64,000 nucleotides of DNA from a virus (lineage: Duplodnaviria > Caudoviricetes), in the IMG/VR virus record IMGVR_UViG_3300021426_000063, positions 1 to 64,000 of that record. One strand, written 5' to 3'. The translations under genes and the position numbers were made by a program. Each line of letters begins with the position of its first letter. Within the stretch, counting starts at the first letter, position 1. Under the pieces are notes generated by a model. The model worked only from the letters and a program-made list of their open reading frames with translations. It was not told where the DNA came from and did not search any database. Shown here piece by piece: positions 1-60,010 of this stretch.

Positions 1-588
1 GATTACGCCCATCCTAAACTTGATGACAGTGAAGTAATCAAGAACCATTCTAAAACCATCCTCAATGTTCTTGAACTCATCAGTAGTGGCTGTGGCAATA
101 ATTTTCAGATTATCTTCCTCAATAGCACCAATAAGGGTATTTACAAAAGAGAAACCAGTATTACCATAACAGTTAAGGTTAAGGAGGTGACCAATGTTGT
201 TGAGAACAAGAGTAATCTCAAAGTTCTCATTCTCTGTAGCAACAGTAAAGATATCATTGATAATCTGACCAAAATCACCATTACTATGAGTCTTCTGAAG
301 GATATCATTGAAATCAATCTCAATGACCTTGTCAGACTTCACATTCTTGACAAGTTTATTGACATATCCTTCTATGATACTCCTCTTTCCAGATCCGAAA
401 TCACCAACAAGCAAAACTGACCTGAAATCAGACTTACTCATTATATTGTATACCCTGTTGATTTCAGAATCACGGAATTTTATATTGTCTCTTCCCTCAA
501 TCAATGAACCAACCGAAAGAATACTGTCAAACATATTCTTTGTGGTTCCATCCTCATTCTTTTTAATGTCTGTGTAAATTTCTCCCAT
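1..588 (-). CDS. Hsp100/ClpA-ClpB-like AAA+ ATPase, N-terminal part with a degenerate NBD1; runs off the left edge
   Basis: Translated by hand (not in the ORF track): MGEIYTDI...FRDSEINRVYNIMSKSDFRSVLLVGDFGSGKRSIIEG...LVLNNIGHLL...KIIATATTDEF. This matches the ClpB NBD1 pattern GRDxEI...PVLVGEPGVGKT...FIDEIH...IGATTxxE. Confidence 0.7.
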   Translation of the reverse strand, partial: MGEIYTDIKKNEDGTTKNMFDSILSVGSLIEGRDNIKFRDSEINRVYNIMSKSDFRSVLLVGDFGSGKRSIIEGYVNKLVKNVKSDKVIEIDFNDILQKTHSNGDFGQIINDIFTVATENENFEITLVLNNIGHLLNLNCYGNTGFSFVNTLIGAIEEDNLKIIATATTDEFKNIEDGFRMVLDYFTVIKFRMGVI

Positions 589-610
589 ATATATACTTAT
601 TAATCTTTTG

Positions 611-622
611 TAAATATAACAA
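611..622 (-). promoter_or_regulatory. Early-type promoter TTGTTATATTTA
   Basis: Motif recurs upstream of about 16 gene starts in the window; resembles the Bacteroidota -7 element TAnnTTTG. Confidence 0.65.
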
Positions 623-649
623 AGAAAGAGGGTAATTCCCTCTTTCTTT
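621..649 (-). terminator. Intrinsic terminator after the clamp loader gene
   Basis: Inverted repeat AAAGAAAGAGGG-taatt-CCCTCTTTCTTT. Confidence 0.7.
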
Positions 650-664
650 GAAGATTTTTATGAA

Positions 665-1630
665 TTATTTTTGTAATTCAGTTTGTAATTCAAAGATGTT
701 TGCCAATAGAACCACAACCGGGTCAATACAGTTCTTGAAGTTCTGTTGGTATTTTGCATTGAGTACAGAGATGACAGGTATCTTACCCATCAGGTTTGGT
801 TTAGATTTCAAGATGTACTCAATGAAAGGATAACCAAGTGATGCAATTGCTTCATCCACACAGTTGGAGTAGTTTTTCATCACAAACTTATAGTTCTCAA
901 CTGGATTATCCTGCATTATGATCATCTCATATAGTTCTGCATACTCACTTGCTGAATCCTTGATATCAGATGCCTCAATATTTGACTTTCCTTCAAGAGA
1001 GAACCTGTGAAGTTTCTTTACAATACTCCTGAAATCAGGATAATATGTAAGAACCAACTTAGCAACAGCATCTCTGGAAATATTGAGACATTCCTTCTTA
1101 CAAATCTCCATAACCCTCAAAATCTGTCCCTTCTTAACCTCATTAATCTCTTCAGCAGAAAAGTTGAAGTCAATCATCAAGAACCTTGACTGAATTGGGT
1201 CAGGAATCTTTTCAACATAATTACAAGTACCAATGAATCTGGTGTTCACAGAACACTTCTCCATAGTTGCCCTCAATGCAGCATATGCCTGCTGTGACAT
1301 ACCATCCATCTCATCCAGGATAACCACCTTGATTGGATTATCATAATGGAGAATGGACTGGTTCATAGCAAAATCCATAATAGTATCCCTGATGGTATCC
1401 ACACCAGTAGTCTCTGACATATTAAGATAGAGAGTATTGTGCTGGAACTGTTTACAGATAGCCTTTGCAGCACTAGTCTTACCAATGCCGGCAGTACCAT
1501 ACAGTAACATTGACTGTACAACACCCTTCTCAAAAATAGTCCTGATTCTCTGTGGAACAATGAGTTCCTTTAAGTTCTGTGGTCTATACTTCTCTTCCCA
1601 CAGAATAGTTTTCAAATTATCTACTGCCAT
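665..1630 (-). CDS. gp44: Sliding-clamp loader AAA+ subunit (T4 gp44/RFC-like)
   Basis: LWEEKYRP, Walker A GTAGIGKT, Walker B ILDEMD, ALRATME, PIQSR. Confidence 0.93.
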   Translation of the reverse strand: MAVDNLKTILWEEKYRPQNLKELIVPQRIRTIFEKGVVQSMLLYGTAGIGKTSAAKAICKQFQHNTLYLNMSETTGVDTIRDTIMDFAMNQSILHYDNPIKVVILDEMDGMSQQAYAALRATMEKCSVNTRFIGTCNYVEKIPDPIQSRFLMIDFNFSAEEINEVKKGQILRVMEICKKECLNISRDAVAKLVLTYYPDFRSIVKKLHRFSLEGKSNIEASDIKDSASEYAELYEMIIMQDNPVENYKFVMKNYSNCVDEAIASLGYPFIEYILKSKPNLMGKIPVISVLNAKYQQNFKNCIDPVVVLLANIFELQTELQK

Positions 1631-1647
1631 ATATAAATCACTTTACA

Positions 1648-1687
1648 TAAAAATAACAAAAAAGGAAGTGTTTGACTTCCTTTTTTC
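1648..1687 (-). promoter_or_regulatory. Terminator hairpin fused to an early-type promoter (TTGTTATTTTTA)
   Basis: AAAAAGGAAGT-gtttg-ACTTCCTTTTT immediately followed, on the minus strand, by the promoter motif. Confidence 0.65.
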
Positions 1688-1689
1688 AA

Positions 1690-2619
1690 TTATTTTCCGG
1701 TTGATCCAAACCCACCTGTACCTCTTTCTGTTTCAGATAATTCATCCACAACCTGTACATGTACTTGCGGATAAGAAAGTACTACCATTTGACCAACACG
1801 GTCACCTACCTGGAATGGTGCAAACTTCAACGCCCTTTCAACATTTACTTTCCCAGTGATCCATTCCCAGAAGGATTTTCTATACCTATCCCTATTCTTG
1901 TACCTGAGTTGGATCTCACCGCGATAAATCGCGCTGTCTGCAATCCCCACAGAGTTGGTGAGATATGCTTCTGTCTTACAGTTTGAACTCCTTGGAAAAA
2001 GAAAAGTACCATAACCATATTCTGATTCTAATGAAAGACCTGTATGATAGATATACAAATCTTTATCAGCATTATATTCAACACTGATTGCAGTTAAATC
2101 CATACCAACATCACCATTATGAGCATATGATGGAATGACTGCATTTTCATCAAGTTTCTTAAATTTTATAGTTACATTTGTCAAGTATTCAAGACTTGGA
2201 ATAACAGCAATATTCTTTTTCTTAACCTCTGTTTCTTTTTTCATAAAATCTATATTAAAATGAGTTATATCCATATTTCTGACAATACCATCTTCATCAA
2301 TATCACCCAGTCCAACTGGTGTTACTCTAATAGACACATCTTTTGATGAATTCAGTATGTTTTGATATGCTTTTCCAGGAATGTTATCAAGTAATTTAAC
2401 TTTACCAAATACATCACCATTAGATTTAATTTCAACTTTATCAATTGTGCCTACTGATTCAAGTATTGATGGGTTCTCTGTTTCAGGATGGCATAAAAGA
2501 CCAAATGTGTGTTTTTCATTGAAATCTTTTATTGCATTCTCCATAACATCCTTTGGGTAAACTCTCCCATTTTTTGATATACTGTCACAGGAGAATAATT
2601 TAGTTTTGATTTCTTTCAT
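1690..2619 (-). CDS. dut: Trimeric dUTPase with an N-terminal gp21-like prohead-protease domain (probably inactive)
   Basis: C-terminus has dUTPase motifs GDVGMDL, FPRSS, VGIADSAIYRGEI, GDRVGQ, RGTGGFGSTG. N-terminus KNGRVYP...GLLCHP...GKVKLLDNIPG resembles gp21. ATG at 2619 is preferred as start. Confidence 0.88.
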   Translation of the reverse strand: MKEIKTKLFSCDSISKNGRVYPKDVMENAIKDFNEKHTFGLLCHPETENPSILESVGTIDKVEIKSNGDVFGKVKLLDNIPGKAYQNILNSSKDVSIRVTPVGLGDIDEDGIVRNMDITHFNIDFMKKETEVKKKNIAVIPSLEYLTNVTIKFKKLDENAVIPSYAHNGDVGMDLTAISVEYNADKDLYIYHTGLSLESEYGYGTFLFPRSSNCKTEAYLTNSVGIADSAIYRGEIQLRYKNRDRYRKSFWEWITGKVNVERALKFAPFQVGDRVGQMVVLSYPQVHVQVVDELSETERGTGGFGSTGK

Positions 2620-2620
2620 A

Positions 2621-3232
2621 TTAATCCTTTTTAATCTTTTTCTGAACACCTCTTCTGTTCAATCTCCTGACACATTCATCATACTCTTCCTGTTCACAAG
2701 TCCAGGCATCCATTGCCATACAGTACCAATCATCTGGGAGAATCTGATGTACAAGATTATTATACAACTGTATGAGATGATTTGTCCTTTTCTTGTAATA
2801 CTCCAGATTTACCTTAATGGATTCTACTTCATCCAAAGAATTCAGAGCATTCAAATAATTGGCAACCTCACCAAGACTATGACAAATCTTTGTACCATTC
2901 TTTTCAACCAATCTTTCTGTTGCATCAAGACTCTTCAATTCACCCTTTGTGAAATCCCTGTCATCATCCTCTTTTGTAACACAGAAGATACAATGACCTT
3001 TCTTCAATTCATGTGAATCATTGACTACTTCAGCAATTGAGAACACTCCCTGCATCTTTGGGGTGATGACATAGAGATGATAGTCACAAACCAACTTCTC
3101 TTTTTCTTCATTTGCCTGACATTCTGGTGTCCAGTCTTCTACAACTGGATTGAAATAATCACACTGTAAAAGTGGAATCAGTTTCTCCCTCCATTTGGAC
3201 TCTGCACAAGTCCCACCTAAAAATACTTTCAT
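2621..3232 (-). CDS. Nucleoside 2-deoxyribosyltransferase-like protein
   Basis: KVFLGGT...WRE...YFNPVVEDW...YVITPKMQGVFSIAE. Confidence 0.72.
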   Translation of the reverse strand: MKVFLGGTCAESKWREKLIPLLQCDYFNPVVEDWTPECQANEEKEKLVCDYHLYVITPKMQGVFSIAEVVNDSHELKKGHCIFCVTKEDDDRDFTKGELKSLDATERLVEKNGTKICHSLGEVANYLNALNSLDEVESIKVNLEYYKKRTNHLIQLYNNLVHQILPDDWYCMAMDAWTCEQEEYDECVRRLNRRGVQKKIKKD

Positions 3233-3237
3233 AATAT

Positions 3238-3726
3238 CTAATTTAATTTAACATATTTTCCTTCTATTCCACTTTCTCTCAATCTCTTGTCACATTCATC
3301 ACCAAATGCAATCAGACAGGATCCAAACATTGGACTCCTTGACTCTCCATTAGAATTGATGAACTTAACCCTTCTTCTCATAAAAATCATTGATTTGGCA
3401 TTTGGAAAGATGACCTCCTGGAATAAGAGATTGTCTGTTCTGTTTACAACTATTGCAATCCCATTATTATGTTCTGCCAGTTTCTGAACAAATGCCTTAA
3501 TAAGTTTACTACTGTAAGGTGGATTCAACCACACCACCTTATTTTTATCCCATTCCTTTGACAATCCATCCTGTTCAATGTTATATGTTTCCGGTGCAAT
3601 ATAAACAGGCGGATTCATTGCAGAACATGGATCCAAATCAAATGGTCCGAGAGTATCTATTAACCATTTTGGAGTATACCATTCATCAGATGATACAACC
3701 TCATTCTTCTGTTGCCTGTTATCCAT
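3238..3726 (-). CDS. Phage Dam-type DNA N6-adenine methyltransferase
   Basis: SDEWYTP, FDLDPC, WLNPPYS, RRVKF. Confidence 0.88.
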   Translation of the reverse strand: MDNRQQKNEVVSSDEWYTPKWLIDTLGPFDLDPCSAMNPPVYIAPETYNIEQDGLSKEWDKNKVVWLNPPYSSKLIKAFVQKLAEHNNGIAIVVNRTDNLLFQEVIFPNAKSMIFMRRRVKFINSNGESRSPMFGSCLIAFGDECDKRLRESGIEGKYVKLN

Positions 3727-4255
3727 TTAAATCCTCATCAATTTCTTCTGTCTCATCCTCATCATCTTCATCCTCATCATCTCCCCACCAATTAGTCTCA
3801 TAATATTTTGAACCAAAGTTCTCCTCACAATAATCCCTGAAAGGCATATCACCTATCCTGGAATTTCCTGGATATTCTTCACCTTCTTCTGGGATATAGA
3901 CAAAATCAGAATACTTTCTCTTCTCTTCTACATCTTCCCAAACTAATTTCCTCTTTCCAAATAGACCATTCCTCTTAAAACTACCATGCCTGGTAATATA
4001 GGCATATTCATCATCTGTGAGGAGTTCAGGACAGTTTTTCTCAACCCATTCCCTTGGAGCAGATATTGTGTAATTGGTACTCATATCAACTGTACCATAA
4101 TATACACACAGCTTGTTCTCCTTACACCAATTATCATCCTTGAAACTCTGGTTAAAGTCATTACCTAACCATTTCTTGAAATTTTCAGTAGGTGGATAAT
4201 CACGGCCACAAAACCAGTTGTTAACTGAAATATAAACTACATCTTGTTTTTCCAT
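3719..4255 (-). CDS. Hypothetical protein with acidic tail
   Basis: 178-aa ORF tightly packed in the operon. Confidence 0.7.
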   Translation of the reverse strand: MEKQDVVYISVNNWFCGRDYPPTENFKKWLGNDFNQSFKDDNWCKENKLCVYYGTVDMSTNYTISAPREWVEKNCPELLTDDEYAYITRHGSFKRNGLFGKRKLVWEDVEEKRKYSDFVYIPEEGEEYPGNSRIGDMPFRDYCEENFGSKYYETNWWGDDEDEDDEDETEEIDEDLNG

Positions 4256-4259
4256 AATA

Positions 4260-4727
4260 TTAATGTTTAATCATTTCCTTAAAAAATTCACTCATACAAT
4301 CAACAACTATACTGTTTCCAGCCAATTGTGCTAACTGGTTATTACTGAGTCCCCCATCAACCAGTTTCTGAATATCATCATCTTCACATCCCATCATTCT
4401 CATAGACTCAAACCCAGACAATCTCCTTACTATATATTTTCCATTATCAATAAACAGAAACCTGGGACTGAATGACAATGTAAGTGTAGGACAAGTACCA
4501 ATAGGAGAATACACCCTGGTGTCCTGTGGATTATAAAAACCCGTTCTGTCAATATGGAGATTACCCAACTGCACCAGATGAGGGAACTTCTCCGGGACAG
4601 TATCCTCCATTCTCTCACCAAACAGATTGTATTCACCCCACATATCTGTGTCAAACTCCTTTACATTGGTATTGACATAGTTGGACTGCTTACCCTTTAC
4701 TTTCTTTTCTTCCTTAATCCTACTCAT
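4260..4727 (-). CDS. C5-cytosine methyltransferase C-terminal half (beta-1: TRD plus motifs IX-X)
   Basis: TRD-like QDTRVYSPIGTCPTLT, motif IX RRLSGFESMRMMG, motif X QLAGNSIVV; no motifs I-VIII. Confidence 0.85.
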   Translation of the reverse strand: MSRIKEEKKVKGKQSNYVNTNVKEFDTDMWGEYNLFGERMEDTVPEKFPHLVQLGNLHIDRTGFYNPQDTRVYSPIGTCPTLTLSFSPRFLFIDNGKYIVRRLSGFESMRMMGCEDDDIQKLVDGGLSNNQLAQLAGNSIVVDCMSEFFKEMIKH

Positions 4728-5085
4728 TTATAACTGTGATATTAACTTCAATATATTCAATTTCCCAATCTTCCGGATGGTTGCTGATTCTTATATCCAC
4801 ATAATCATCAGTTGTTCTATCAGATTGGATATCAATTCCAGGAATCTCACCATTGTGTATCTTCATACCAATCACATATTCAACAGGTAACTTCTTCTTA
4901 CTCCGACCTCTGTTGGCTATGAAATACAAGGTGTCATAAAAGAATACATGTTCAGGATTTGTCACCTGATTAAATGCATATTTGGTGTCATATACCTTAC
5001 CTTTTGCATCAAAATTGGTGTACTTACCCTTTAATGGTCTGAAATAAAGACCTGTTGGTTTATGTTTTATTCTATATAGTTTCAT
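4720..5085 (-). CDS. Hypothetical phage protein between the MTase halves
   Basis: 121 aa, MKLYRIKHKPTGLYF; overlaps both neighbours. Confidence 0.7.
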   Translation of the reverse strand: MKLYRIKHKPTGLYFRPLKGKYTNFDAKGKVYDTKYAFNQVTNPEHVFFYDTLYFIANRGRSKKKLPVEYVIGMKIHNGEIPGIDIQSDRTTDDYVDIRISNHPEDWEIEYIEVNITVINE

Positions 5086-5801
5086 TTCTGTATTCCTGCA
5101 AATTTTTTAAATTGTTCATTGTCTCTGAGATAAATGTCAGTGTTCTCATCTGGATCCACCAACTTCCCCCACAGTTCCTGACCAATCTCTTCCTTGGTCT
5201 GTATGAAATCAAGAGTATTCTTATTCAACTTCCATCCCCGTGGGAACACAAAGTCACCTTCTGGGTTCAGGATAGACACACAGAACACCCTCTCACGGTC
5301 CTGGGGGATACCAAAATCAGAACCCTTCAATACCTTCCAATAGTTTGTATAACCTCTGGATTCAAGATAGTTCAACCAAAGATTGAAAGTGTCTATGAAC
5401 CTCTCTGAAACAAGATTCTTCACATTCTCCAACATCAAGTATTTGGGTTTCTTGATGTCTATTGCTTTCTTACACTCCCAAAGTAATGATGACTTGGTAC
5501 CAGAACCCTCTTCACCACCAAGCATCTTTCCGGCCAGACTGAAGGATTGACAAGGTGACGAGTAAGTAAAGAAGTCAAAATCAGGTACATTCTCCCAGTC
5601 TATCTTACAGATGTCACCATAGTTCCTGTCCTTGTATTCAGGAAAAATGAGATTGTGTGCTTCTATTGCCCTCTTCTCAATCTCACTCCAACCTATAAGG
5701 TCAAAAGGAATACCTGCTTTTTTAAGAGCAAGACACTGTGAGTCATATCCTGAAAAAGTAGTGAATACTTTTAAGGGATTTTCTATTGTATATTTCTCCA
5801 T
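5082..5801 (-). CDS. C5-cytosine methyltransferase catalytic half (alpha-1: motifs I-VIII)
   Basis: FSGYDSQ (I), SEI (II), GDI (III), YSSPCQSFS (IV), ENV (VI), PQDRERVF (VIII); ends without TRD or motifs IX-X. Confidence 0.9.
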   Translation of the reverse strand: MEKYTIENPLKVFTTFSGYDSQCLALKKAGIPFDLIGWSEIEKRAIEAHNLIFPEYKDRNYGDICKIDWENVPDFDFFTYSSPCQSFSLAGKMLGGEEGSGTKSSLLWECKKAIDIKKPKYLMLENVKNLVSERFIDTFNLWLNYLESRGYTNYWKVLKGSDFGIPQDRERVFCVSILNPEGDFVFPRGWKLNKNTLDFIQTKEEIGQELWGKLVDPDENTDIYLRDNEQFKKFAGIQK

Positions 5802-20492: not shown

Positions 20493-21283
20493 ACTGCTAC
20501 AGGAGCTTTGATTGCTGGATATGGATCATAATCAACCAGTTGGAAATCCTCATACTTGAAATCAAAGATGGATTTGACATCAGGATTGATAATCATCTTT
20601 GGAAGAGGTCTTGGTTCTCTTGACAACTGTAAATCAACCTGTTCCATATGATTGAGATAAAGATGGGTGTCACCAGTGGTATGAATGAACTCACCCGGTT
20701 GAAGACCACACACCTGGGCCAACATCATTGTCAAAAGAGCATAAGATGCAATGTTGAAAGGTACACCAAGGAAAGTATCAGCAGATCTCTGATAGAGTTG
20801 ACAGGATAGTTTCCCATCTGCCACATAAAACTGGAAAAGACAGTGACAAGGAGGGAGTGCCATCTTGTCAATCTCTGCCGGATTCCAGGCAGTCACCAAA
20901 ATCCTCCTTGAATCAGGATGATTTTTAATCAAATCAACAACCTGTGAAATCTGGTCAATCACCCTTCCATCAGTTGTCTCCCAGGATCTCCACTGTTTTC
21001 CATATACATATCCCAAATCACCATTCTCATCTGCCCATTCATCCCAGATATGGACATTATGGTCTGTGAGGAACTTGATGTTTGTGTCTCCCTTCAGGAA
21101 CCACAGTAATTCATATATAATTCCTTTTAGAAAGACTTTCTTTGTTGTAAGGAGTGGAAACCCATCCTGGAGATTAAAACGCATCTGGTGACCAAATATG
21201 GACTTTGTACCAACACCTGTGCGATCAGTCTTGACCACACCATTCTCTTTAATTTCTCTTAATAAATCTAAATACTGTTTCAT
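20489..21283 (-). CDS. thyA: Thymidylate synthase
   Basis: [40 protein letters not shown]; uninterrupted. Confidence 0.98.
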
Positions 21284-42544: not shown

Positions 42545-42896
42545 CTACAAATGCTCTTGGACTGGCCTCTATATTAGACACTTCTTTGTCAGTTGCATAA
42601 TATCCAACACCATCAGAATCCATAATACCACCATATATACAATGGGATTTAAATTCATTAATGGTCATCAGACACTCCTTGTCCAAATCATCCATTGGTT
42701 TCATCTCTGGAGTTTCCTTCATAGACTTTGCTGCATAAAGAGCTTCATTGTCATCCCAATAAGGCTTACACTTCACTCTCCATCTCTCATATGAATTACC
42801 ATCATCAGTATCCCAGATTTCTTTCAATTTCTTGCTATTTTCCTCAATCCTGGATTCTATCTCTTCAAGAGTGAGGTTATTATAATTTCTTACCAT
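42495..42896 (-). CDS. Hypothetical phage protein
   Basis: IMDSDGVGYYAT...YVCWYNK. Confidence 0.7.
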   Translation of the reverse strand: MVRNYNNLTLEEIESRIEENSKKLKEIWDTDDGNSYERWRVKCKPYWDDNEALYAAKSMKETPEMKPMDDLDKECLMTINEFKSHCIYGGIMDSDGVGYYATDKEVSNIEASPRAFVDGIIRPDFTYVCWYNK

Positions 42897-43627
42897 AATT
42901 CTTCTTCTGGTTGTTCAACACTTTCATCTTTTGAATGTTCCACACTCATAGTCTGGATATACCTGTCAGTGACCTCCTGCTTCATATAATACTTTTCAGG
43001 TACATTATCCTCCAACAGGTCTTCAACTGTCTTTTTGAGTGGAATAGGTCTTGGGAACTCATAATAAGGTTCTGGTTCATCATCTGTCTTCAAGATAGAG
43101 ATCATGAAAATCCTCTCCCTGGACTGGGGAACACCATAATCCTTGGCATTGAGAACCTGATGGAAATTGGAATAACCATAAGATTCCAACTCCTTACACC
43201 ACTTCTCAAAGAGATACTTGAACTTATCTGTCACCAGGGCTTTCACATTCTCAAACATCAGATACTTTGGTTTCTTGGCAAGGATAGTCTTCCTACACTC
43301 CCAAAGAAGGGATGACCTGGTACCAGAACCCTCCTCACCACCAGCCTGCTGACCAGCATTCGAGAAATCGGTGCAAGGTGATGAATAAGTAAACAGGTCA
43401 AAATCAGGAACTTGTGACCAGTCAATCTTGGAGATGTCACCATAATTCCTGTCAGCATATTGGGGGAACAGAGCATTATGTGCCTTGATGGCTGCTGGGT
43501 CTATCTCTGACCAGCCTACCAAATCATAATCAATCCCCAGTCTGTTGAGTGCCAGACACTGGGAATCATAACCAGAGAATGCAGTGAACACTCTCAAAGG
43601 ATTTTCTTTTGTATATTTCTTTACCAT
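42890..43627 (-). CDS. C5-cytosine methyltransferase catalytic half (alpha-2: motifs I-VIII)
   Basis: FSGYDSQ, YSSPCTDFS, ENV, PQSRERIF; paralog of 5082-5801; no TRD or motifs IX-X; ATG at 43627. Confidence 0.9.
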   Translation of the reverse strand: MVKKYTKENPLRVFTAFSGYDSQCLALNRLGIDYDLVGWSEIDPAAIKAHNALFPQYADRNYGDISKIDWSQVPDFDLFTYSSPCTDFSNAGQQAGGEEGSGTRSSLLWECRKTILAKKPKYLMFENVKALVTDKFKYLFEKWCKELESYGYSNFHQVLNAKDYGVPQSRERIFMISILKTDDEPEPYYEFPRPIPLKKTVEDLLEDNVPEKYYMKQEVTDRYIQTMSVEHSKDESVEQPEEELW

Positions 43628-43631
43628 AAAC

Positions 43632-43874
43632 CTATTTATTATCAAGTTCTTGCTGCTTCTTTAACTTCTTTTCATCCAACCACTTTTGTATCCTCTCATT
43701 TAATTGTTCTCTTTCTGTCATTATTCTATAATATCCATCCTTTGTACATTTTTCTTTTGGACAATACTTATCATCTTTAAGAGAACAAACATCACATCCT
43801 TTTTCACCAAAACAATCCAATTCCCATTTATATCTAAATCTAAATTTATCTCCAATTATAAAAATATCATCCAT
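43632..43874 (-). CDS. Small Cys-containing hypothetical protein
   Basis: Packed ORF. Confidence 0.6.
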   Translation of the reverse strand: MDDIFIIGDKFRFRYKWELDCFGEKGCDVCSLKDDKYCPKEKCTKDGYYRIMTEREQLNERIQKWLDEKKLKKQQELDNK

Positions 43875-43876: not shown

Positions 43877-44593
43877 CTATAACTTAATTTCATCTATTTT
43901 CTCAATCCATTCAGGTCTTATATTATCCATAGTAAAATATGAATCAAACCCTCTTGCATTTGGGTCTTTATAAAGTTTTATATTCTCAACTTTATTGAAA
44001 TCAATCCTGTAAACAGAGTATTCTTTAATCCTCTTTTTATTTAAAAGTGATTTATCAATTTCTTTTTTAAAAACTTGATTCATCATTTTATAGAAAATAG
44101 GTTCATATAATTTTATACATATCCTGTGCAAGAATTCTAAATCACCATTAGACAATAGATAAATTCTATCTGGATATTTGAATCTATAATTTCTACTTCT
44201 TGGTATCAAACCCATTGTCTGAATTTTCTTATCATTGATAGATGGTGTCAGATGATAAAAATATTGTATTTCACCAGATTGTTTTAATTTATCAAATATA
44301 TTTTCTTCATATATCTTCTCATATGTGTAATAATCATCAATATTTTCATCTGCTTGATAATATCCACCAAGTTTCAATACACTTTCAACATCATCAAACA
44401 AATTTTCATCTAATTTCTTACTCACAAGAATATATTCACCATCATCTATATATAATTCAACAGAATCATCATCAAGATTATACTTCTTTTGTATGTATCT
44501 TACAACCTTGTCTGCTGGATATGTCATCAGGAGACCCTCATTCAATGATGTCTCCTGAACAAACTCATCAAAATCCAATACATTCTTTACCAT
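43877..44593 (-). CDS. Putative ADP-ribosyltransferase-fold protein with a capsid-targeting-like leader
   Basis: FYHLT...N...I...GLIP....RIYL...NIRPEWI (Tpt1/DarT-like ART signature); N-terminus VLDFDEFVQETSLNEGL. Confidence 0.55.
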   Translation of the reverse strand: MVKNVLDFDEFVQETSLNEGLLMTYPADKVVRYIQKKYNLDDDSVELYIDDGEYILVSKKLDENLFDDVESVLKLGGYYQADENIDDYYTYEKIYEENIFDKLKQSGEIQYFYHLTPSINDKKIQTMGLIPRSRNYRFKYPDRIYLLSNGDLEFLHRICIKLYEPIFYKMMNQVFKKEIDKSLLNKKRIKEYSVYRIDFNKVENIKLYKDPNARGFDSYFTMDNIRPEWIEKIDEIKL

Positions 44594-44811
44594 AACTGTA
44601 TATCTTTCTTTTTAGGTTCATTCCTGTTGATGAATAACTTGTCAAACATATGTACCATACAATCAACCACAATTGAGTTACCATACATTTTATAAAGTGC
44701 ATTGTCACTCAAATCACAGCTGAGCATAATATCAATATCCTTGTCATCAACTCCCATCAGTCTACCACACTCCCTTGGTGTCATCTTCCTGATTCTGTAG
44801 TACTTCTTCAT
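44587..44811 (-). CDS. C5-MTase C-terminal mini-subunit (beta-0: motifs IX-X only, 74 aa)
   Basis: RIRKMTPRECGRLMGV...LYKMYGNSIVVDCM; ATG at 44811 directly after promoter 44816-44827. Confidence 0.82.
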   Translation of the reverse strand: MKKYYRIRKMTPRECGRLMGVDDKDIDIMLSCDLSDNALYKMYGNSIVVDCMVHMFDKLFINRNEPKKKDIQLW

Positions 44812-44828
44812 ACTATAAATATAACAAA

Positions 44829-45107
44829 TTATTTCCCTGAACATACAAGATAATACCTGTGGAGAAGACCATAAGGTACTTGTTTCCAAAGTACTTTCTC
44901 ATAAATCTTAATACTTGCATCAAGTGCTTCTTTTTCAGTTTCAAAAGAGACAAATCCTTCACCAGTGACAACTTCAATAAAAGTATCAACCTTGTAAGGG
45001 TATAATCTACACATATCACTCAACTTCTCTGGGAAGAAGTCAAGGTCTCGGAGTATCCATCTGTCTCCATACTTATTCACCAGTCTGGCAATAGTTTCTT
45101 TATTCAT
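44829..45107 (-). CDS. Hypothetical protein
   Basis: Packed ORF. Confidence 0.65.
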   Translation of the reverse strand: MNKETIARLVNKYGDRWILRDLDFFPEKLSDMCRLYPYKVDTFIEVVTGEGFVSFETEKEALDASIKIYEKVLWKQVPYGLLHRYYLVCSGK

Positions 45108-45486: not shown

Positions 45487-45831
45487 CTAAAACAATTTTA
45501 TTTCTTCTTTTGGTTTCCTTTCTTCATAAAAGAGTTCCCTGAATATCTCTGTCATCACATCAACAACAATGGAGTTTCCAAAGAGGGAATTGACCACACC
45601 TGGTGCAAGGACACCTGTCATCTTGTCAATATCAGAATCATCCACTCCCATCAGTCTCCCAATCTCCTTGGTTGTCATCTTCCTGATTCTTCCATTATCA
45701 AGTATTTTGAGATAACTGTTTGTGTTGTTATGCTGACCCACACAGATACAACGGCAGACCCCATCGGTGTACATCACTGTATCCTGCTGATGTGGACCAA
45801 CCTTGACTATGTGTATATCATTGTTTAGCAT
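45487..45831 (-). CDS. C5-MTase C-terminal half (beta-2: TRD plus motifs IX-X)
   Basis: TRD-like HQQDTVMYTDGVCRCI; RIRKMTTKEIGRLMGV; SLFGNSIVVDVM. Confidence 0.85.
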   Translation of the reverse strand: MLNNDIHIVKVGPHQQDTVMYTDGVCRCICVGQHNNTNSYLKILDNGRIRKMTTKEIGRLMGVDDSDIDKMTGVLAPGVVNSLFGNSIVVDVMTEIFRELFYEERKPKEEIKLF

Positions 45832-46880: not shown

Positions 46881-47414
46881 TTAAAACAATGGTATTTCTG
46901 GATTCTTTCTTTCACTAAATAAATTTCTGAACATCTCTGTCATCACATTCACCACAATGGAATTGCCGGCAAGTTTCTTTCTGAATTTTGAAGGTACTGC
47001 ATCAATTATCTTCTGTGTATCTTCTGGATCCACATCCATCAGTCTGAATGCCTCCCTGTCAGTTAACTCTCTCACCTTGTAGTTCCTGTCCCAGACATAA
47101 TTGTCCATTGAGAAGGTGGTGAGAGTGTTGGAATATCCATCTCCCGTTGGTTCAGCATAGACCCCCTTTCCAAACTTCTTTCCTGCATCACCAAACCTGT
47201 GTCTCCTCAACTTCTCCTCTTCAGTTCTTTTCTGCTTCAATATCTGTGGTGGTTTCAATCCATCAGCAAAGAGATAAACATCATCACCAACCACCTTACA
47301 CATCATAGGAAGAGTAGTCCTGAGATACTTCCTTTTCTCCCAGTCCTTCTTTTTGAAATAGAGTTCTTCTGGAACATCTTTCTCAATTATCTCTTCCAGT
47401 GTGGTTTGCTTCAT
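46881..47414 (-). CDS. C5-MTase C-terminal half (beta-3: TRD plus motifs IX-X)
   Basis: TRD-like PTGDGYSNTLTTFSMDNYV; KVRELTDREAFRLMDV; KLAGNSIVVNVM. Confidence 0.85.
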   Translation of the reverse strand: MKQTTLEEIIEKDVPEELYFKKKDWEKRKYLRTTLPMMCKVVGDDVYLFADGLKPPQILKQKRTEEEKLRRHRFGDAGKKFGKGVYAEPTGDGYSNTLTTFSMDNYVWDRNYKVRELTDREAFRLMDVDPEDTQKIIDAVPSKFRKKLAGNSIVVNVMTEMFRNLFSERKNPEIPLF

Positions 47415-47673
47415 ATTCTTCTTTATCCATTAACATTCTCACAACATCTCTCCACCATTCATAATATTGCTTATTTTCATAACTCATATCATCCATATAA
47501 GTATTCCAAGCAATATAACACATATCCCTTGCTTCATCCAATTCTGTTTTGTCTTCTGTCAATAATCTGATATATTCTGCATATTCCTCCTTATTCAAAA
47601 ACAATGGAAAAAAGATTCTCTTATACCATTTAAGACCTTTCTTGAATGATATATATTCTAAATAGGTTGCCAT
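47383..47673 (-). CDS. Hypothetical protein
   Basis: Packed ORF. Confidence 0.6.
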   Translation of the reverse strand: MATYLEYISFKKGLKWYKRIFFPLFLNKEEYAEYIRLLTEDKTELDEARDMCYIAWNTYMDDMSYENKQYYEWWRDVVRMLMDKEEYEANHTGRDN

Positions 47674-50018
47674 ATCCTTTTCTTTAATTCATTACCAATT
47701 CGTTCAACAATTCCACACACAAGTGCATTACCCATCAGAAACCCTCTCTTTTTGTCAGTAGTACCCTCTGTATGATTATCTGGGAACATCTGTATCCTTT
47801 CCAGTTCAATGGGCACTAAACGCCTTAATTTGCCTGTTTCTGGGTCTTGTATAATATGTGTAAATCTGTTTGATACAATAGACACCTCACTTGTGATTAA
47901 TGTCCTTGCTGGTTTATCTAATGGGTCAGGAAATGCCATACTTCCCTCTGTGTACATATACTCATGTCCATCCTTACTGGTCCTGGGTATCTGCTTCGGA
48001 CCCTTGGCATACTTCCACTTCTCAACATCATCATTAGATAAATAATAATCTTCTGTAATATACTTCCTGTCATCTCCTTTCACCAGGATATCTCCAAGGG
48101 TTGTATATGGTCCAGAATAATCAGGAATGAGTTTATCTGTATATATAACCCCATCAATGACAACACCACCATTCTCAAATGGATTGGAAACAACATTACC
48201 CTTATTGAAGTTATCAGAGAGATAAACAAGGTCTGTATTCAATCTTCTTCCATCAAGACCCCACAATCCCTGATCTACATTGGGTTTGACAGGAAATGCC
48301 TTTGCCAATACACCATCTATATACAACCAGGAATCAGGAGAGGAAATCTTGAACTCACCTTTCAGAAATGCAAAGATGAATATTCTTCTTCTCTTCTGTG
48401 GCATACCATATTCAGCAGCATTGATAACCCTCCATTCAATGTTATATCCAAGGTTTATCAATGATTGGAGAATAAGTGCAAAATCCCTACCCCTTTGTTT
48501 GGATGGGGAGATAATCATCCTGTCCACATTCTCAAAAAGAAGGAACTTTGGTTTTTCCTTCATTTCAGAAAGAAGTCTGATGACCTGCCACCAGAGAACA
48601 CCTTTCTTTCCCTCAATACCAAGGGATTTGGTTTTATTCCTGGCAACACTATAATCCTGACAATTATGTGTTATACAATGATTTGCAATAAATGAATGAC
48701 TTTCATCTACTTCAATATCATACACAGGTTGTTCAATATATTCTTCAATCTTTGAAATTGGATACCAAATATATCCATCCTCATAGAAATATGTTGAATG
48801 AACAGGTTCAGAAAATCTATATTTTAATTGATAAAAATTATTCTGATTTACAAGTCTACCTTCTATTATCTTTTCTTCTGGAACTTTACATAATGACAAC
48901 ATTGTTGGTTTATGATATACCTTCTCAACACAATGTGCAATGCCATATAAAAGTTCCTTACTAACAGATGTAAACTGGTTATATATTCCTGTTACACATC
49001 CATCACTATCTTGATATCCTTTTAGTAACTGTTCAAGAAGATTTATAGGTAAATCAAATACAAATCCTGGTAATCTCTTTGTTCTTGCAGAATGTTCTTC
49101 TCCTGAATAAAATTGTTCACAGAAATGAGCAAGTTCTATATCACTAAATATAAAATTATATGTTGTTGTATTTTCAGCAATAGTATAATGATATTTATCT
49201 GATATTTTTGATGCAAATTCATCAATTTCATCTTTACCACAACAAATACCAATACCATTATATTTGTATCTGTGTTCACCTTTCTTCTGTTGCTTTCTCA
49301 ACCAACCATCTCCAAGAAATCTGCCAACAATATACCATAAATTTTCATCAGTCATATCCAAGTTACAATGTGTTTCCGAAACAAACTGATTTTTATTTAT
49401 GGTTAATCCTCTCCATTCTGGAATAATACTGTTTTGATTGATTGCAGATCCCATATAGTAATCCTTATAACAATCTTTCAGGTCATCAACAGATTTCCAT
49501 TCTGGTTGTGAGAATGATTTTATATATACAGGTTTTCCTTTTAATCTTGTACTTCTTTGTATCTTTTCCCGTACAAGAAATCTATGGTTTCCTGTTGCCT
49601 CAATAGTATCAAATCCACTTGCCTTAATCTTATAAGTTTGTTTGATACCTTGATTCATAAATTTATTGACTCTATGATACTGGTTATCATGTCCAAGTAC
49701 CATATCACCCTCTTTAACATCTGTGATATACTTATATCCATCAGATGTCAACACAAAGGTATTCCCAGACAAGCAAGGAAATCCACCAACCATAAGATCA
49801 GCTTCCAAATCCTTACCAGAAACCTTGCAAATATCATCATTTATCAATAAGTCATTTGGAAATCTCTTCCTGTATATATTGGCAGCAAACTGGTCTTTGG
49901 TACCAGGTTCCCACTGGTTGGCCAAAACACACTTATAGAATCCATTGCCTGCTCTGTCAAAGCCAACATGGAATCCACCAACACCAGCAAATAATTCTAT
50001 GTATCTACACTCTTTCAT
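47658..50018 (-). CDS. Full-length C5-cytosine methyltransferase of the M.Sau3AI type (likely GATC), intein-containing
   Basis: ELFAGVGGF, ANQWEP, GGFP|CQDYSVAR, GIEGKKGVLWW, ENVDR..SPSKQRGRDF, QKRRRIFI, ARTLITSE, RRLVPIELER, MGNALV. Confidence 0.9.
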   Translation of the reverse strand: MKECRYIELFAGVGGFHVGFDRAGNGFYKCVLANQWEPGTKDQFAANIYRKRFPNDLLINDDICKVSGKDLEADLMVGGFPCLSGNTFVLTSDGYKYITDVKEGDMVLGHDNQYHRVNKFMNQGIKQTYKIKASGFDTIEATGNHRFLVREKIQRSTRLKGKPVYIKSFSQPEWKSVDDLKDCYKDYYMGSAINQNSIIPEWRGLTINKNQFVSETHCNLDMTDENLWYIVGRFLGDGWLRKQQKKGEHRYKYNGIGICCGKDEIDEFASKISDKYHYTIAENTTTYNFIFSDIELAHFCEQFYSGEEHSARTKRLPGFVFDLPINLLEQLLKGYQDSDGCVTGIYNQFTSVSKELLYGIAHCVEKVYHKPTMLSLCKVPEEKIIEGRLVNQNNFYQLKYRFSEPVHSTYFYEDGYIWYPISKIEEYIEQPVYDIEVDESHSFIANHCITHNCQDYSVARNKTKSLGIEGKKGVLWWQVIRLLSEMKEKPKFLLFENVDRMIISPSKQRGRDFALILQSLINLGYNIEWRVINAAEYGMPQKRRRIFIFAFLKGEFKISSPDSWLYIDGVLAKAFPVKPNVDQGLWGLDGRRLNTDLVYLSDNFNKGNVVSNPFENGGVVIDGVIYTDKLIPDYSGPYTTLGDILVKGDDRKYITEDYYLSNDDVEKWKYAKGPKQIPRTSKDGHEYMYTEGSMAFPDPLDKPARTLITSEVSIVSNRFTHIIQDPETGKLRRLVPIELERIQMFPDNHTEGTTDKKRGFLMGNALVCGIVERIGNELKKRIWQPI
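48663..49775 (-). mobile_element. Intein (371 aa) with a LAGLIDADG homing endonuclease, inserted in MTase motif IV
   Basis: Starts CLSGNT, ends VYDIEVDESHSFIANHCITHN before Cys+1; internal YIVGRFLGDGW and LLKGYQDSDG blocks. Confidence 0.93.
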
Positions 50019-50029
50019 AATTAACACCT

Positions 50030-54527: not shown

Positions 54528-56009
54528 GTGTCTATGATAAATAAAAACACACAACAGACAACACAAATTTCATCTGGTATAAAGTCTGAATCAACAATCT
54601 ATTTAAAGAAGAGTGAACTTCCAAAAGACATAAGTTCATTCAGAAATGATGTTGGTTATATCTCCACATCTGCACTTGGTGTATGGATGAAGGAACATTC
54701 ATATTTAACAAAGAGTGAAATAAACACTCTCATCAAGAATGCTAACCTTGTGGTTGTTGATTCCATCAACAAATCTATGGATGATGATGCCATCAGTAGA
54801 CTCAATGATGATATAACAAACATCAAGGGTGAAATTGTTGCAATCAAAGACAGACTCACTGATCTTGATATAGAGTTCATACCATCAAGTAAAGAGTCAA
54901 AATTTGCAACAAAATCAGAACTCAATACTCTTTCAGGTAGAGTAAGTGAGATTGCCAGACTCATTCCAGATGATATAGATACATCATATTTTGCTACAAA
55001 GGATGAGATTCCTACAAAGGTATCTGATTTGGAGAATGATGCACACTATCTTACTGAACACCAGTCATTGGCCAAGTATGCCAAGAAGTCTGAAATTCCT
55101 GATGTATCTGGATTCATCACAATAGATGATGTTCCTTCAACAGAAGGTCTTGCATCAGAGGAGTGGGTGAACTCCCAGGGATTCCTCAAAGAACATCAAT
55201 CTCTTGTCAAATATGCAAAAAAGTCTGAAATTCCTGATGTATCTAACTTTGTTACAAAAGATGAGATTCCTTCCATAGATGGAATTGCATCAGAGGAGTG
55301 GGTGAACTCCCAGGGATTCCTTAAAGAACACCAGTCTCTTGCTAAATATGCCAAGAAGTCTGAAATTCCTGATGTATCTAACTTTGTTACAAAAGATGAG
55401 ATTCCTTCCATAGATGGAATTGCATCACAAGATTGGGTGAACTCCCAGGGATTCCTTAAAGAACACCAGTCTCTTGCTAAATATGCCAAGAAGTCTGAAA
55501 TCCCATCATTGGATGGATATGCAACACAGACCTGGGTAGAAGAACAAGGATACTTGAAGGAGATTGGTAATGATTATGCCAAGAAATCAGATCTTGATGG
55601 TTTTGTTTCAAAGACATCTCTTTCTGGTACATTGGGAGATTATGCAAAAAAGAACTCTGTTTATAATAAGACACAAATAGATAATACATTCCTTTCAAAA
55701 GAAGATGCATCTGGTATCTATCCTACAAAGGAATATGTTGATGAAACTTATCTTTCAAATCTTGAAGCGGCAAAGAACTACTTGAAAATCGAAGATTATA
55801 GAGGATTGAAGGATGCGACAGTCATCAATACAGATTTCAGGGAGAAAACCCTTGAAGAATTGAGTGATACTCTTGAATCATCTTATTTGAGAAATGGATT
55901 CTACATTGTTCATTACAATGATATAGTTATCATAAAGGACAATAAGATTGTCCAGATGTTTAAAGATGGAGTTCCACAAACAGTTATTGAGTGGGAAGTT
56001 GAAGAATAA
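54528..56009 (+). CDS. Fibre-like repeat protein (probable tail or head fibre)
   Basis: IPTKVSDLENDAHYLTEHQSL-type repeats; CATAAATA at 54503-54510. Confidence 0.7.
   Translation: MSMINKNTQQTTQISSGIKSESTIYLKKSELPKDISSFRNDVGYISTSALGVWMKEHSYLTKSEINTLIKNANLVVVDSINKSMDDDAISRLNDDITNIKGEIVAIKDRLTDLDIEFIPSSKESKFATKSELNTLSGRVSEIARLIPDDIDTSYFATKDEIPTKVSDLENDAHYLTEHQSLAKYAKKSEIPDVSGFITIDDVPSTEGLASEEWVNSQGFLKEHQSLVKYAKKSEIPDVSNFVTKDEIPSIDGIASEEWVNSQGFLKEHQSLAKYAKKSEIPDVSNFVTKDEIPSIDGIASQDWVNSQGFLKEHQSLAKYAKKSEIPSLDGYATQTWVEEQGYLKEIGNDYAKKSDLDGFVSKTSLSGTLGDYAKKNSVYNKTQIDNTFLSKEDASGIYPTKEYVDETYLSNLEAAKNYLKIEDYRGLKDATVINTDFREKTLEELSDTLESSYLRNGFYIVHYNDIVIIKDNKIVQMFKDGVPQTVIEWEVEE
55056..55510 (+). repeat. 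135-bp (45-aa) tandem repeat, about 3.3 copies
   Basis: EHQSLAKYAKKSEIP units start at 55056, 55191, 55326 and 55461. Confidence 0.9.
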
Positions 56010-56549: not shown

Positions 56550-56572
56550 CACAAAATAAACAACATAACAAT

Positions 56573-56776: not shown

Positions 56777-56839
56777 AAGAGAGAGGTATTACCTTTCTCT
56801 TTTTTCATAAATACATTATAAATAATAAAACATAACAGA

Positions 56840-58369: not shown

Positions 58370-58386
58370 TTAAAGTAAAATAAAAC

Positions 58387-58419
58387 AAAAAGGAGAGTGA
58401 TTATTCACTCTCCTTTTTT
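58387..58419. terminator. Bidirectional terminator
   Basis: AAAAAGGAGAGTGA-tta-TTCACTCTCCTTTTT. Confidence 0.8.
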
Positions 58420-58625
58420 AATATATCTATACATAATGGATAACTCTCATCTACTGGTTGTCTTAAAAACCTGTCCAGTTGTTCCTTGGTGTCAAACCTC
58501 CTGGATCTCCTGTTACAGAAATACATCCTGAAAGGGAGATTATTATAGAACAATGAATCATCATCTACAATGCTCCACCATTCATTTAATCTTAATCTAT
58601 ATGTTTTAACGACTTTTTCTTTCAT
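58401..58625 (-). CDS. Hypothetical protein
   Basis: Packed ORF. Confidence 0.55.
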   Translation of the reverse strand: MKEKVVKTYRLRLNEWWSIVDDDSLFYNNLPFRMYFCNRRSRRFDTKEQLDRFLRQPVDESYPLCIDILKKESE

Positions 58626-59364
58626 AAATCAACTTTGCATAATGCCTGGTATCGACAGGGAAGGTCTCATTCTCCATCATCCATTTGAAGTAAGATGCAT
58701 CTACCTTGTCAATACTGTATCCCTTCCACTTACCAAAATCAACATATACATCCTTGGCACCATTCTCCAGAAGTCTCACCTTGAAGTTTCCAGGTAAATC
58801 CAGTCTATCTGCAAAGTAATTGAGATCTACATCCTCAAACTCCTCCTGGCGACTTCTCATCACCTTATATACCTCTAATGTGGCATCAATATCTGCTGCT
58901 GCATGATGAGCATCATTGAGGTCTTTCCCAGTGTATTTCTTATACACATCTGCCAACTTACCAGAATTGAACTTCCTGTAAAGAGTATAGATGTCATAAT
59001 TCTTCAAGTTCTTGTAATCCCAAGTCAATCCTGCTCTAATGAATGAGTAATACAGGATAGGAATATCAAAGACAGAGCAGTAATAACCACCAACATCACA
59101 ACCCTGGAAGAAATCAAAGGTTGCTTTTGCACATTCCTGGAAGGTAGGACATCCAGCAAGATCTGCTTCTACCATTCCATGCCTTTCTGTTGCATCATGG
59201 TCAATAGGAACACCATCATTACTACACTTGTAATACAACTCATCAATCTTCTCCAAGGTTTCAGGATCCACCTTGATAGCAGAGATTTCAATGATTCTCA
59301 CATTATCTGGATTGGAATGTTTTCCGGTTGTTTCCAGATCAAAAAATACAATTGGTTTACTCAT
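58606..59364 (-). CDS. DEDDh 3'-5' exonuclease (DnaQ/ExoX-like)
   Basis: FFDLETTG, HG, FDIPIL, AHHAAADI, C-terminal FGKWKG...YFKWM. Confidence 0.9.
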   Translation of the reverse strand: MSKPIVFFDLETTGKHSNPDNVRIIEISAIKVDPETLEKIDELYYKCSNDGVPIDHDATERHGMVEADLAGCPTFQECAKATFDFFQGCDVGGYYCSVFDIPILYYSFIRAGLTWDYKNLKNYDIYTLYRKFNSGKLADVYKKYTGKDLNDAHHAAADIDATLEVYKVMRSRQEEFEDVDLNYFADRLDLPGNFKVRLLENGAKDVYVDFGKWKGYSIDKVDASYFKWMMENETFPVDTRHYAKLIYERKSR

Positions 59365-59370
59365 ATATAA

Positions 59371-59943
59371 CTAATCTAAATATTCAATGTTTATATGTAC
59401 TATTCCCCTCTTATACTCAATCTCATCCCTTACCATTTTCTTCTTCATCTTTTCAAAATCATCCATATCAACATATGGTGAACCACAATTAGAAGTATTT
59501 GGGAATAAATCATACTTCTCTTCAAAGGCCTTGACTAAATCATGTGATGCATGCTCATAGTAGAAACCTATGAGTTTCAGGTCATTCTTCAACTCTTTAA
59601 CCACTTCTGGATTCATATCTTTCAGATACACATAATCTTTATATGAAATATCATATATACCCTCAAATTGTCTGTTTGACAGATTATATTTATATAATGA
59701 AGAATCCTTTGAAGGATTAAAGGTAAACAAATGTTTCTTATTAAGTCTATTCACACACTCATGTGTCCTGACATACTCTTCCTTTCCACCAAATTTTTCA
59801 TACACATCCTTATCTGGAATGTCTAACATAAATTTCTGGGCAGATTTCTTGTTTGAAAATCCAAACTCTGTTTTACCCATATACTTTCCATTGTAAAAAG
59901 GAAATATCCTCTCTTCATTGTTCTTTATCTGATCATAATTCAT
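59371..59943 (-). CDS. Hypothetical protein
   Basis: First gene after the promoter at 59969-59980. Confidence 0.7.
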   Translation of the reverse strand: MNYDQIKNNEERIFPFYNGKYMGKTEFGFSNKKSAQKFMLDIPDKDVYEKFGGKEEYVRTHECVNRLNKKHLFTFNPSKDSSLYKYNLSNRQFEGIYDISYKDYVYLKDMNPEVVKELKNDLKLIGFYYEHASHDLVKAFEEKYDLFPNTSNCGSPYVDMDDFEKMKKKMVRDEIEYKRGIVHINIEYLD

Positions 59944-59978
59944 ATCTATACAACATTAGTTATCACTATAAAGATAAC

Positions 59979-60010
59979 AAAAAAAGAGAGAATCCCGAAA
60001 GATTCTCTCT
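59979..60010 (-). terminator. Terminator of the major capsid transcript (UUCG loop), fused to the next early promoter
   Basis: Minus strand AGAGAGAATCT-TTCG-GGATTCTCTCT-TTTTT-GTTATCTTTA. Confidence 0.8.

Follow-up and report, generated by a model that had tools for sequence, protein, structure and literature searches.

Erosion of CpG by cytosine methylation is textbook knowledge for vertebrates, and there is one mycoplasma for which it has been reported. Phages avoid short palindromic restriction sites, an avoidance that is relieved by phage methyltransferases; the Sau3AI system has a cytosine-5 (C5) methyltransferase for GATC. The C5 methyltransferases of Bacillus phages SPR, phi3T, and rho11s are multispecific, with several recognition domains on one core, and the SPR enzyme recognizes GGCC, CCGG, and CCWGG. 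In Escherichia coli, very-short-patch repair by the Dcm/Vsr system is said to shape oligonucleotide abundance, as Bhagwat and McClelland reportedly found in 1992. For Mycoplasma penetrans, which has the methyltransferase M.MpeI, an under-representation of CpG is related in PMC10899764 and PMC11282364 (from Wojciechowski et al. 2013). Here we analyze a 64,000-nucleotide stretch of phage DNA (the window; positions 1 to 64000 of the 233,103-bp record IMGVR_UViG_3300021426_000063, labeled G000), in which about 90% of the CpG has been lost via C-to-T-type mutations and CCGG is less depleted than the other CpG-containing sites. Our literature searches turned up no account of phages with CpG depletion of the G000 kind.

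CpG loss and its mutation spectrum

The window (1-64000) contains 199 CG dinucleotides where ~1900 are expected (observed/expected ratio [o/e], 0.10), and the whole 233-kb record contains 682 (o/e, 0.09), with values of 0.06 to 0.22 per 10-kb block. TG/CA is in excess (o/e, 1.39). CG loss is similar in all codon phases (o/e of 0.18 at codon positions 1-2, 0.06 at 2-3, and 0.10 across the 3|1 junction) and in intergenic DNA (0.10), which indicates a process at the level of DNA rather than of codons. Across the whole record, the nine classes of NCGN tetramers other than CCGG have o/e values of 0.02 to 0.145, and palindromic and nonpalindromic classes are depleted alike (nonpalindromic ACGA, 0.07; CCGA, 0.08; ACGC, 0.03). 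A first-pass annotation of the window had counted about 27 CGs by hand in the first ~6.2 kb. The count is exact (~190 to 200 are expected); seven of the 27 are the CCGG sites that it listed (718, 1488, 1697, 3591, 4592, 4773, and 5530; together spanning 718-5533), and CCG or CGG accounts for another 14, in line with its remark on the remaining CGs. Its view of the depletion as an evolutionary footprint is borne out, and the independence from codon phase and palindromy places the footprint at the DNA level. It had also noticed more frequent CG in the capsid gene, and the gene for the major capsid protein (T4 gp23 family; 60035-61777, minus strand) indeed ranks first in the genome by CG o/e (0.42). 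Most of the CG in this gene is carried by retained CGN arginine codons (11 CGN versus 6 AGR).

We compared G000 with eight related records taken whole and with four more for strain comparisons (IMG/VR records, designated by G numbers). Five relatives with 84 to 97% capsid identity (G001, G002, G003, G005, and G006) have CG o/e values of 0.19 to 0.32 and, together with G000, make up the CG-depleted clade of six genomes. The sisters of the G007/G008/G009 type, with 75 to 77% capsid identity, have values of 0.57, 0.79, and 1.09. Over the nine related genomes, the o/e of TG goes up from 1.02 to 1.39 as that of CG goes down from 1.09 to 0.09. The CpG erosion is thus recent and confined to one clade.

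The mutation spectrum was taken from close strains of G000, namely, a 229,756-bp contig that is 94 to 98.6% identical over ~40 kb and a second strain at 97% identity, with the undepleted G008/G010/G011 as the control clade. Transitions were found at 53 of 354 CG positions versus 489 of 17456 other C/G positions (odds ratio [OR], 6.1; P = 4e-22), and transversions at 9 of 354 versus 221 of 17456 (OR, 2.0; P = 0.05). The corresponding ORs at CG in the control clade are 1.6 to 1.75 for transitions and 1.9 to 2.45 for transversions. Transitions alone are thus in excess beyond the control, which fits deamination-type mutation and is not predicted by selection against CG, since selection would favor any change that destroys CG. 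At synonymous third positions, the two comparisons of CG contexts with controls gave 26 of 90 versus 167 of 2096 and 13 of 41 versus 123 of 2156 differences, i.e., 29 to 32% versus 6 to 8%. Just under 30% of the CGs present in either strain are unshared, at ~4% overall divergence.

The first-pass annotation had offered two routes to this footprint. Deamination of 5-methylcytosine (5mC) is supported, as CG falls while TG/CA rises, the loss is independent of codon phase, and the excess of changes at CG is limited to transitions. The purging of CG-containing restriction sites unless the phage methylates them does not agree with a depletion that is incomplete and set at the dinucleotide level, nor with CG transversions that do not exceed the control. 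Two other ways of reading the changes were abandoned. Parsimony polarization with G001-G003 as outgroups suffers from fast CG turnover, in which parallel losses mimic gains, and from too few aligned outgroup columns; at 77% identity, the 4-fold sites compared among G000-G003 are saturated, and rate ratios taken from them only restate composition.

The CCGG surplus

CCGG occurs at 38 sites in the window (36 of them in positions 1-60000) versus 59 expected from base composition (o/e, 0.65) and at 120 sites in the whole record (o/e, 0.53). As a codon-pair control, expectations were derived from amino acid pairs and codon usage, and identical 5' codons were compared. NCC|GGN was observed 64 times versus 108.5 expected (0.59), while the corrected values are 0.11 for NCC|GAN, 0.30 for NCC|GCN, and 0.06 for NCC|GTN (binomial P = 3e-14 versus NCC|GGN). 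Of the 60 proline CCG codons, 46 have G as the next base (P = 2e-10). The enrichment of CCGG over other NCGN, on which the first-pass annotation had staked its proposal beforehand, therefore persists after codon correction (0.59 versus 0.06 to 0.30). About 4- to 5-fold of the CCGG excess is CCGG specific after the codon-pair control, and about half of the raw contrast between CCGG and CG is compositional, because CCGG already stands at twice the CG average in the undepleted G008. The shortfall of NCC|GG in G000 is matched by a surplus of NCT|GG. As a separate observation, GCCGGC is present in 17 copies in the genome (including window positions 1487, 19670, 46965, and 57395), all in coding frames. 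For the codon pair GCC|GGC (Ala-Gly), there are 13 instances versus 0.7 expected, and 11 of the 17 sites are the 8-bp palindrome TGCCGGCA.

The status of CCGG differs among the members of the depleted clade. Its o/e is 1.43 in G001, 1.32 in G006, 1.21 in G003, 0.85 in G002, 0.53 in G000, and 0.28 in G005; CCGG is not spared relative to other CG in G005, while G001, G002, G003, and G006 spare it. We fitted a flank model in which each strand's cytosine in CG is penalized by its 5' neighbor. In G001, G003, and G006, the factor for a 5' C is 1.0 to 1.2, the factors for A, G, and T are 0.25 to 0.5, and the observed/predicted ratios for CCGG are 1.33, 0.91, and 0.95, respectively. In G000, the 5'-C factor is 0.46, and 120 CCGG sites are observed versus 47 predicted. 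The half-sites ACGG, TCGG, CCGA, and CCGT, normalized to G008, are spared 2- to 3-fold in G001 and are not spared in G000.

Between the close strains of G000, 26 CCGG sites were kept, 10 underwent transitions, and 2 underwent transversions; the figures for other CG are 119, 41, and 5. Synonymous transitions affect 9 of 34 CCGG and 30 of 97 other CG sites (P = 0.67), and a 4-fold lower loss rate of CCGG is rejected (P = 0.005). Only 13 to 26% of CCGG sites are identical between G000 and G001-G003, versus 41 to 45% of non-CG tetramers. At the CCGG sites of G001, G000 mostly has CCAG/CTGG (88 sites) or the synonymous transversion neighbors CAGG/CCTG (52 sites). Given this loss rate, the poor conservation, and the escape of CCGG in relatives, we read the surplus in G000 as a decaying legacy.

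The proposed repair gene and the methyltransferases

The first-pass annotation had suggested that CCGG is protected or repaired by the product of a Vsr-like gene at 33206-33631 (minus strand). In Pfam, the protein matches PF21598 (PvuRts1I-like_N) and PF04480 (DUF559) only; it has no NCBIfam match, and a genome-wide scan of G000 gave no match to PF03852 (Vsr) at E values up to 0.1. The predicted fold (predicted local distance difference test score of 70, with a 15-sequence alignment) is closest to the catalytic domain of the homing endonuclease I-Bth0305I (E = 9e-5; template modeling score of 0.67 on the target), and E. coli Vsr ranks 13th among the structural matches (E = 0.03). The gene does not adjoin any methyltransferase gene and is absent, together with its two neighbors, from G001, G002, G003, G005, and G006; four of these spare CCGG, and in three the sparing is stronger than in G000. 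Judged by its Pfam matches and modeled fold, the protein is best read as a small PD-(D/E)xK nuclease of the DUF559/PvuRts1I-N type, probably free-standing and mobile and most like a homing endonuclease. The missing PF03852 match, the homing-type fold, the absence from CCGG-sparing relatives, and the loss of CCGG at the general CG rate all speak against the suggested role, and the CCGG surplus in G000 is probably not actively protected by this nuclease.

A phage-encoded Vsr in the relatives was considered and rejected: the weak PF03852 matches in G001, G002, G008, and G009 belong to a multicopy DUF7487 family, whose presence does not track the CCGG escape. Proteins of this family (320 to 390 residues, with a DUF7487 and a weak Vsr-like domain) are encoded in G001 (86.3-87.3 kb), G002, G003 (289.2-290.2 kb), G008, and G009, in at least eight copies in the richest genome and none in G000. 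One copy is inside the methyltransferase cluster of G003, and the distribution of the family resembles that of homing endonuclease genes.

The C5 methyltransferase set of the window consists of one full-length enzyme with an inserted intein, two separate catalytic halves, and four C-terminal ones. The full-length gene (47658-50027, minus strand; PF00145 on both sides of the intein, plus intein domains) has orthologs in all six depleted genomes and none in G007, G008, and G009. Homologs with ~50% identity exist in many Bacteroidota and some Campylobacterota, and a MutH-family endonuclease gene (PF02976, 500 to 550 residues) is directly upstream in 46 of 80 bacterial homolog loci; a sequence search gave no solved relative of this endonuclease. 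Enzymes of the MutH/Sau3AI family cut GATC, and the methyltransferase M.Sau3AI belongs to the C5 class. The o/e of GATC is 0.00 in the noncarriers G007 and G008, 0.25 in G009, and 0.47 to 0.83 in the six carriers, and viral contigs with homologs of the gene are not CG depleted (51 loci pooled; CCGG, 0.94; CG, 0.97). Because of the MutH-family neighbors, the relaxation of GATC in carriers, and the undepleted viral contigs, the enzyme is probably of the Sau3AI (GATC) type and not a CpG enzyme. CCGG had been entertained as its target from site depletion in the first seven loci, which the 51 further viral loci contradict. GATC itself, which is wholly absent from the 134 and 363 kb of G007 and G008, clearly exemplifies site avoidance that a GATC-type cytosine methyltransferase relieves. 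Contrary to the first-pass annotation, GATC is not common in the window, with 93 sites versus 206 expected (o/e, 0.45).

The split enzymes are encoded on the minus strand as well. A catalytic half with motifs I to VIII (alpha; 42890-43645, PF00145 positions 6-225) has the CpG methyltransferase M.MpeI as its best solved relative (E = 4.5e-24), barely ahead of M.HhaI, and searches against solved structures do not separate CG-type from GCGC-type catalytic domains. Three separate genes encode C-terminal (beta) halves, one with a recognition domain and motifs IX-X (46881-47414) and two further motif IX-X halves (45487-45831 and 44587-44889). Among solved structures, M.MpeI is the top match, or the sole one, for the alpha and beta halves. 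The first-pass annotation had predicted CCGG or CCNGG as a target of one beta subunit; the one methyltransferase of the set whose target could be deduced is the intein-containing enzyme, with GATC. In the viral collection, the family of the beta half at 46881-47414 occurs nowhere outside the CG-depleted clade and the G009/G012 phage, which is partly depleted. A second split C5 locus (4260-5801) comprises a catalytic half (5082-5801), an unrelated open reading frame (4720-5085), and a C-terminal half (4260-4727). This pair is unlikely to drive the CpG loss, because a fused homolog exists in the undepleted G008. Since the intein enzyme appears to be of the GATC type and the second split pair also occurs in G008, alpha and its three beta halves are left as the candidate CpG-directed enzyme. 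Names in a large protein collection and in NCBI families read only "DNA cytosine methyltransferase," and an Atlas look-up gave no specificity.

Other methyltransferases bring the phage total to at least nine modules. Two tandem beta-class amino-methyltransferase genes are located at genome positions 162222-162983 and 162949-163749, one with SPPY (N4-cytosine type) and one with DPPY. The SPPY gene (162222-162983) has 97.6% identity to its counterpart in G002 and 72% in G001, which suggests recent exchange; as a protector of CCGG it was rejected, its ortholog being absent from the CCGG-sparing G003. An N6-adenine methyltransferase of 479 residues (N6_Mtase/Eco57I; 21280-22719) is encoded beside thymidylate synthase and DHFR, and further modules are Dam-like (3238-3726), D12 (genome positions 83237-84079), and a helicase-methyltransferase of 1927 residues.

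Some other sites are strongly biased in G000. The first-pass annotation was right that CCWGG is common (o/e, 3.2 to 3.6), and this 3-fold excess is largely tied to avoidance of CTAG: CTAG has an o/e of 0.06, with NCT|AGG found 5 times versus 51 expected and NCC|AGG/TGG 166 times versus 36. The excess is confined to one codon phase (CCW|GGN, 0.99). AGCT (0.18), GCTA/TAGC (0.17), and the GC dinucleotide (0.60) are also scarce, and serine is encoded by AGC 69 times versus 1455 times by AGT; this AGC/GC avoidance is independent of the CpG loss, since it is common to undepleted relatives.

The closest GenBank relatives of the G000 phage are uncultured huge phages, Lak Prevotella phages, and Tenacibaculum phages. 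CheckV estimates the completeness of the 233,103-bp record at 62%, and a 308-kb ENA metagenomic contig is 99.986% identical to it across 21.7 kb, which indicates that the true phage genome is larger than the record. The only three differences from that contig (55428-55433) are in an internal repeat of ~294 bp at 55073-55501 (offset, 135 bp; ~91% identity), within the gene at 54528-56009. Among the related records, G001 and G004, from different samples, share 155 kb without a difference, and G009 and G012, also from different samples, differ at 3 positions in 95 kb and represent one phage. These pairs indicate that the same phages recur between samples.

Explanations and comparison with known systems

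We favor, at about an even chance of its being correct, a lineage-specific erosion of CpG of the 5mC-deamination type, likely caused by the split methyltransferases of the phage, with the CCGG surplus as a decaying remnant on top of a baseline. A process of transitions only, from CG to TG/CA, would have arisen within one clade of T4-like giant phages. Its most likely driver would be CpG-directed C5 methylation of phage DNA in each infection cycle, and the clade-specific split alpha with its several beta halves may be the best candidates for this activity. In the other members of the clade, a cytosine preceded by C (CCG) would largely escape the erosion, and CCGG, shielded on both strands, would stay at or above expectation. 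In the G000 lineage, the CCG escape appears to have lapsed, with half-sites as depleted as other CG and CCGG lost as fast. The present surplus would then combine a remnant, decaying since an ancestor with the CCG escape, and a 2-fold baseline of compositional origin, due to (Ser/Pro/Thr/Ala)-Gly and Pro-G codon pairs.

Several observations weigh against this explanation. The CCGG escape in the relatives is read from composition, and close strains are at hand for G000 only; a search for close strains of G001 returned relatives that are only ~82% identical. A 2-fold residual protection of CCGG is compatible with the data (P = 0.14). Transition hypermutability at synonymous sites, 4- to 8-fold, is below what an equilibrium o/e of 0.09 needs and can be reconciled with that value only if constrained sites are over-represented among the CGs that survive. 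The beta halves do not conserve recognition loop 2 of M.MpeI (SGANS): they align with it in the TL motif and in motifs IX-X but have other residues in loop 2 (Gly322-Ala323-Asn-Ser325), and a local TTFxxDNYV likeness to loop 1 (Phe302, Glu305) is out of register. A fused homolog with 43% identity to the beta half at 46881-47414 occurs in a phage contig with a CG o/e of 0.80, and the link between methyltransferases and depletion amounts to about two independent phylogenetic contrasts. Finally, CCWGG is 3-fold enriched; if a beta half methylates CCWGG, methylation alone does not erode sites.

The erosion may instead be driven by the host, through methylation of phage DNA by a host CpG methyltransferase or through drift of the phage toward the composition of a CpG-poor host, with the phage enzymes uninvolved and the CCGG escape due to a host Vsr together with an HpaII-type system and changing upon a host switch; we consider this possible, albeit unlikely. 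Phage dinucleotide content is reported to follow host CpG content (PMC11282364). Seven of the 80 bacterial homolog loci, mostly of Bacteroidota, include a Vsr gene along with the C5 methyltransferase gene, and the CCGG escape differs among close relatives with the same methyltransferase set. The undepleted sister clade would fit as well, in that its transition turnover at CCGG is the lowest of all CG contexts (0.08 versus 0.12 to 0.29; OR, 0.38), but this rate is confounded by codon degeneracy and nonindependent pairs, and sister phages with 75 to 77% identical capsids stand at a CG o/e of ~1.0. We know of no bacterium with a CG o/e as low as 0.09, which further counts against a host origin. 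It is decidedly doubtful that a modular phage C5 methyltransferase, made up of one catalytic half and several recognition halves from separate genes, acts on nearly all CpG but those preceded by C, whether by methylation or by enzymatic deamination. The nearly CpG-free state might then mark self DNA against CpG-rich host DNA, and the CCG/CCGG exemption would be a flank specificity that changed recently.

Selection, in which a defense system or nuclease of host or phage penalizes unmodified CG and a phage methyltransferase exempts CCGG, seems to us improbable. Sites are strongly avoided in this phage group (GATC at 0.00, and GCGC at ≤0.1 and CCWGG at 0.04 in some relatives), GATC avoidance is relaxed in the clade with the GATC-type methyltransferase, and the CCGG effect in G000 concerns the full site and not the half-site, all as selection would have it. 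However, every NCGN is depleted irrespective of palindromy and only in part, CG transversions are at the control-clade level while transitions are 3 to 4 times the control, and CCGG now decays like other CG. An excess without any CCGG-specific biology, resulting from codon pairs, CC/GG bias, and more synonymous routes into CCGG, has similarly little likelihood. CCGG in relatives with undepleted or partly depleted CG stands at 2.0 to 2.7 times the average for CG, and it interchanges freely with synonymous CCT|G and NCA|GG codons; its maximal-order Markov o/e in G000 is only 1.4 to 1.6, and a flank-multiplicative model fully predicts CCGG in G003, G006, and G007. Yet, with the same 5' codon, NCC|GG is retained 5 to 10 times better than NCC|GA or NCC|GT in G000, versus contrasts of only 1.3- to 1.5-fold in the undepleted G008; CCG|G exceeds CCG|A 4.8-fold in G000 and 1.06-fold in G008, and the number of CCGG sites in G000 is well above the half-site prediction.

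A clade with CG o/e values of 0.09 to 0.32 beside a sister clade at ~1.0 presents an erosion that started and ran over a short evolutionary span, and related genomes at different stages are a natural system for timing methylation-driven genome change. The sequence preference of a split methyltransferase may be readable from its mutational footprint, and it can be tested whether epigenetic protection comes at a mutational cost to phages. Two annotations are corrected: the "Vsr" gene is more likely a homing endonuclease gene, and the intein-containing methyltransferase appears to be of the GATC and not the CG type.

Compared with the described systems, the G000 clade is a phage example, extreme in degree, of methylation-type CpG erosion with an exemption that varies among close relatives. 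Like vertebrates and M. penetrans, G000 combines a CG deficit with a TG/CA excess, has equal loss in coding and noncoding DNA, and shows transition-specific hypermutability of CG. Its o/e of 0.09 is below the vertebrate level. Its genome likewise includes C5 methyltransferase genes, and of the solved enzymes, M.MpeI comes closest to the split halves. Unlike in these organisms, the depleted genome is that of a phage, the depletion is found within one clade next to a sister clade at 1.09, the candidate enzyme, whose CpG methylation is putative, is encoded in separate halves, and relatives of G000 strongly exempt CG with a 5' C (CCG/CCGG).

The other three systems are matched in part. Restriction-site avoidance is seen for GATC, which is absent from G007 and G008 and reaches 0.47 to 0.83 alongside the Sau3AI-type gene, and for GCGC, CTAG, and AGCT, whereas the CpG loss is dinucleotide-level, incomplete, transition specific, and independent of palindromy. 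Repair of the Dcm/Vsr kind would exempt one methylatable site from C-to-T loss, and the 33206-33631 protein shares the broad nuclease fold; unlike with Dcm/Vsr, CTGG/CCAG, expected to be depleted under such repair, is 2.3-fold over-represented in G000, the gene is unique to G000 among the genomes compared and has no Vsr-family match, and CCGG is not currently protected. The SPR-type enzymes are resembled in the pairing of one catalytic module with several recognition modules and in the privileged state of CCGG and CCWGG in G000-G003. In contrast to those enzymes, the recognition modules of G000 are separate genes, and GGCC is not privileged (o/e, 0.46).

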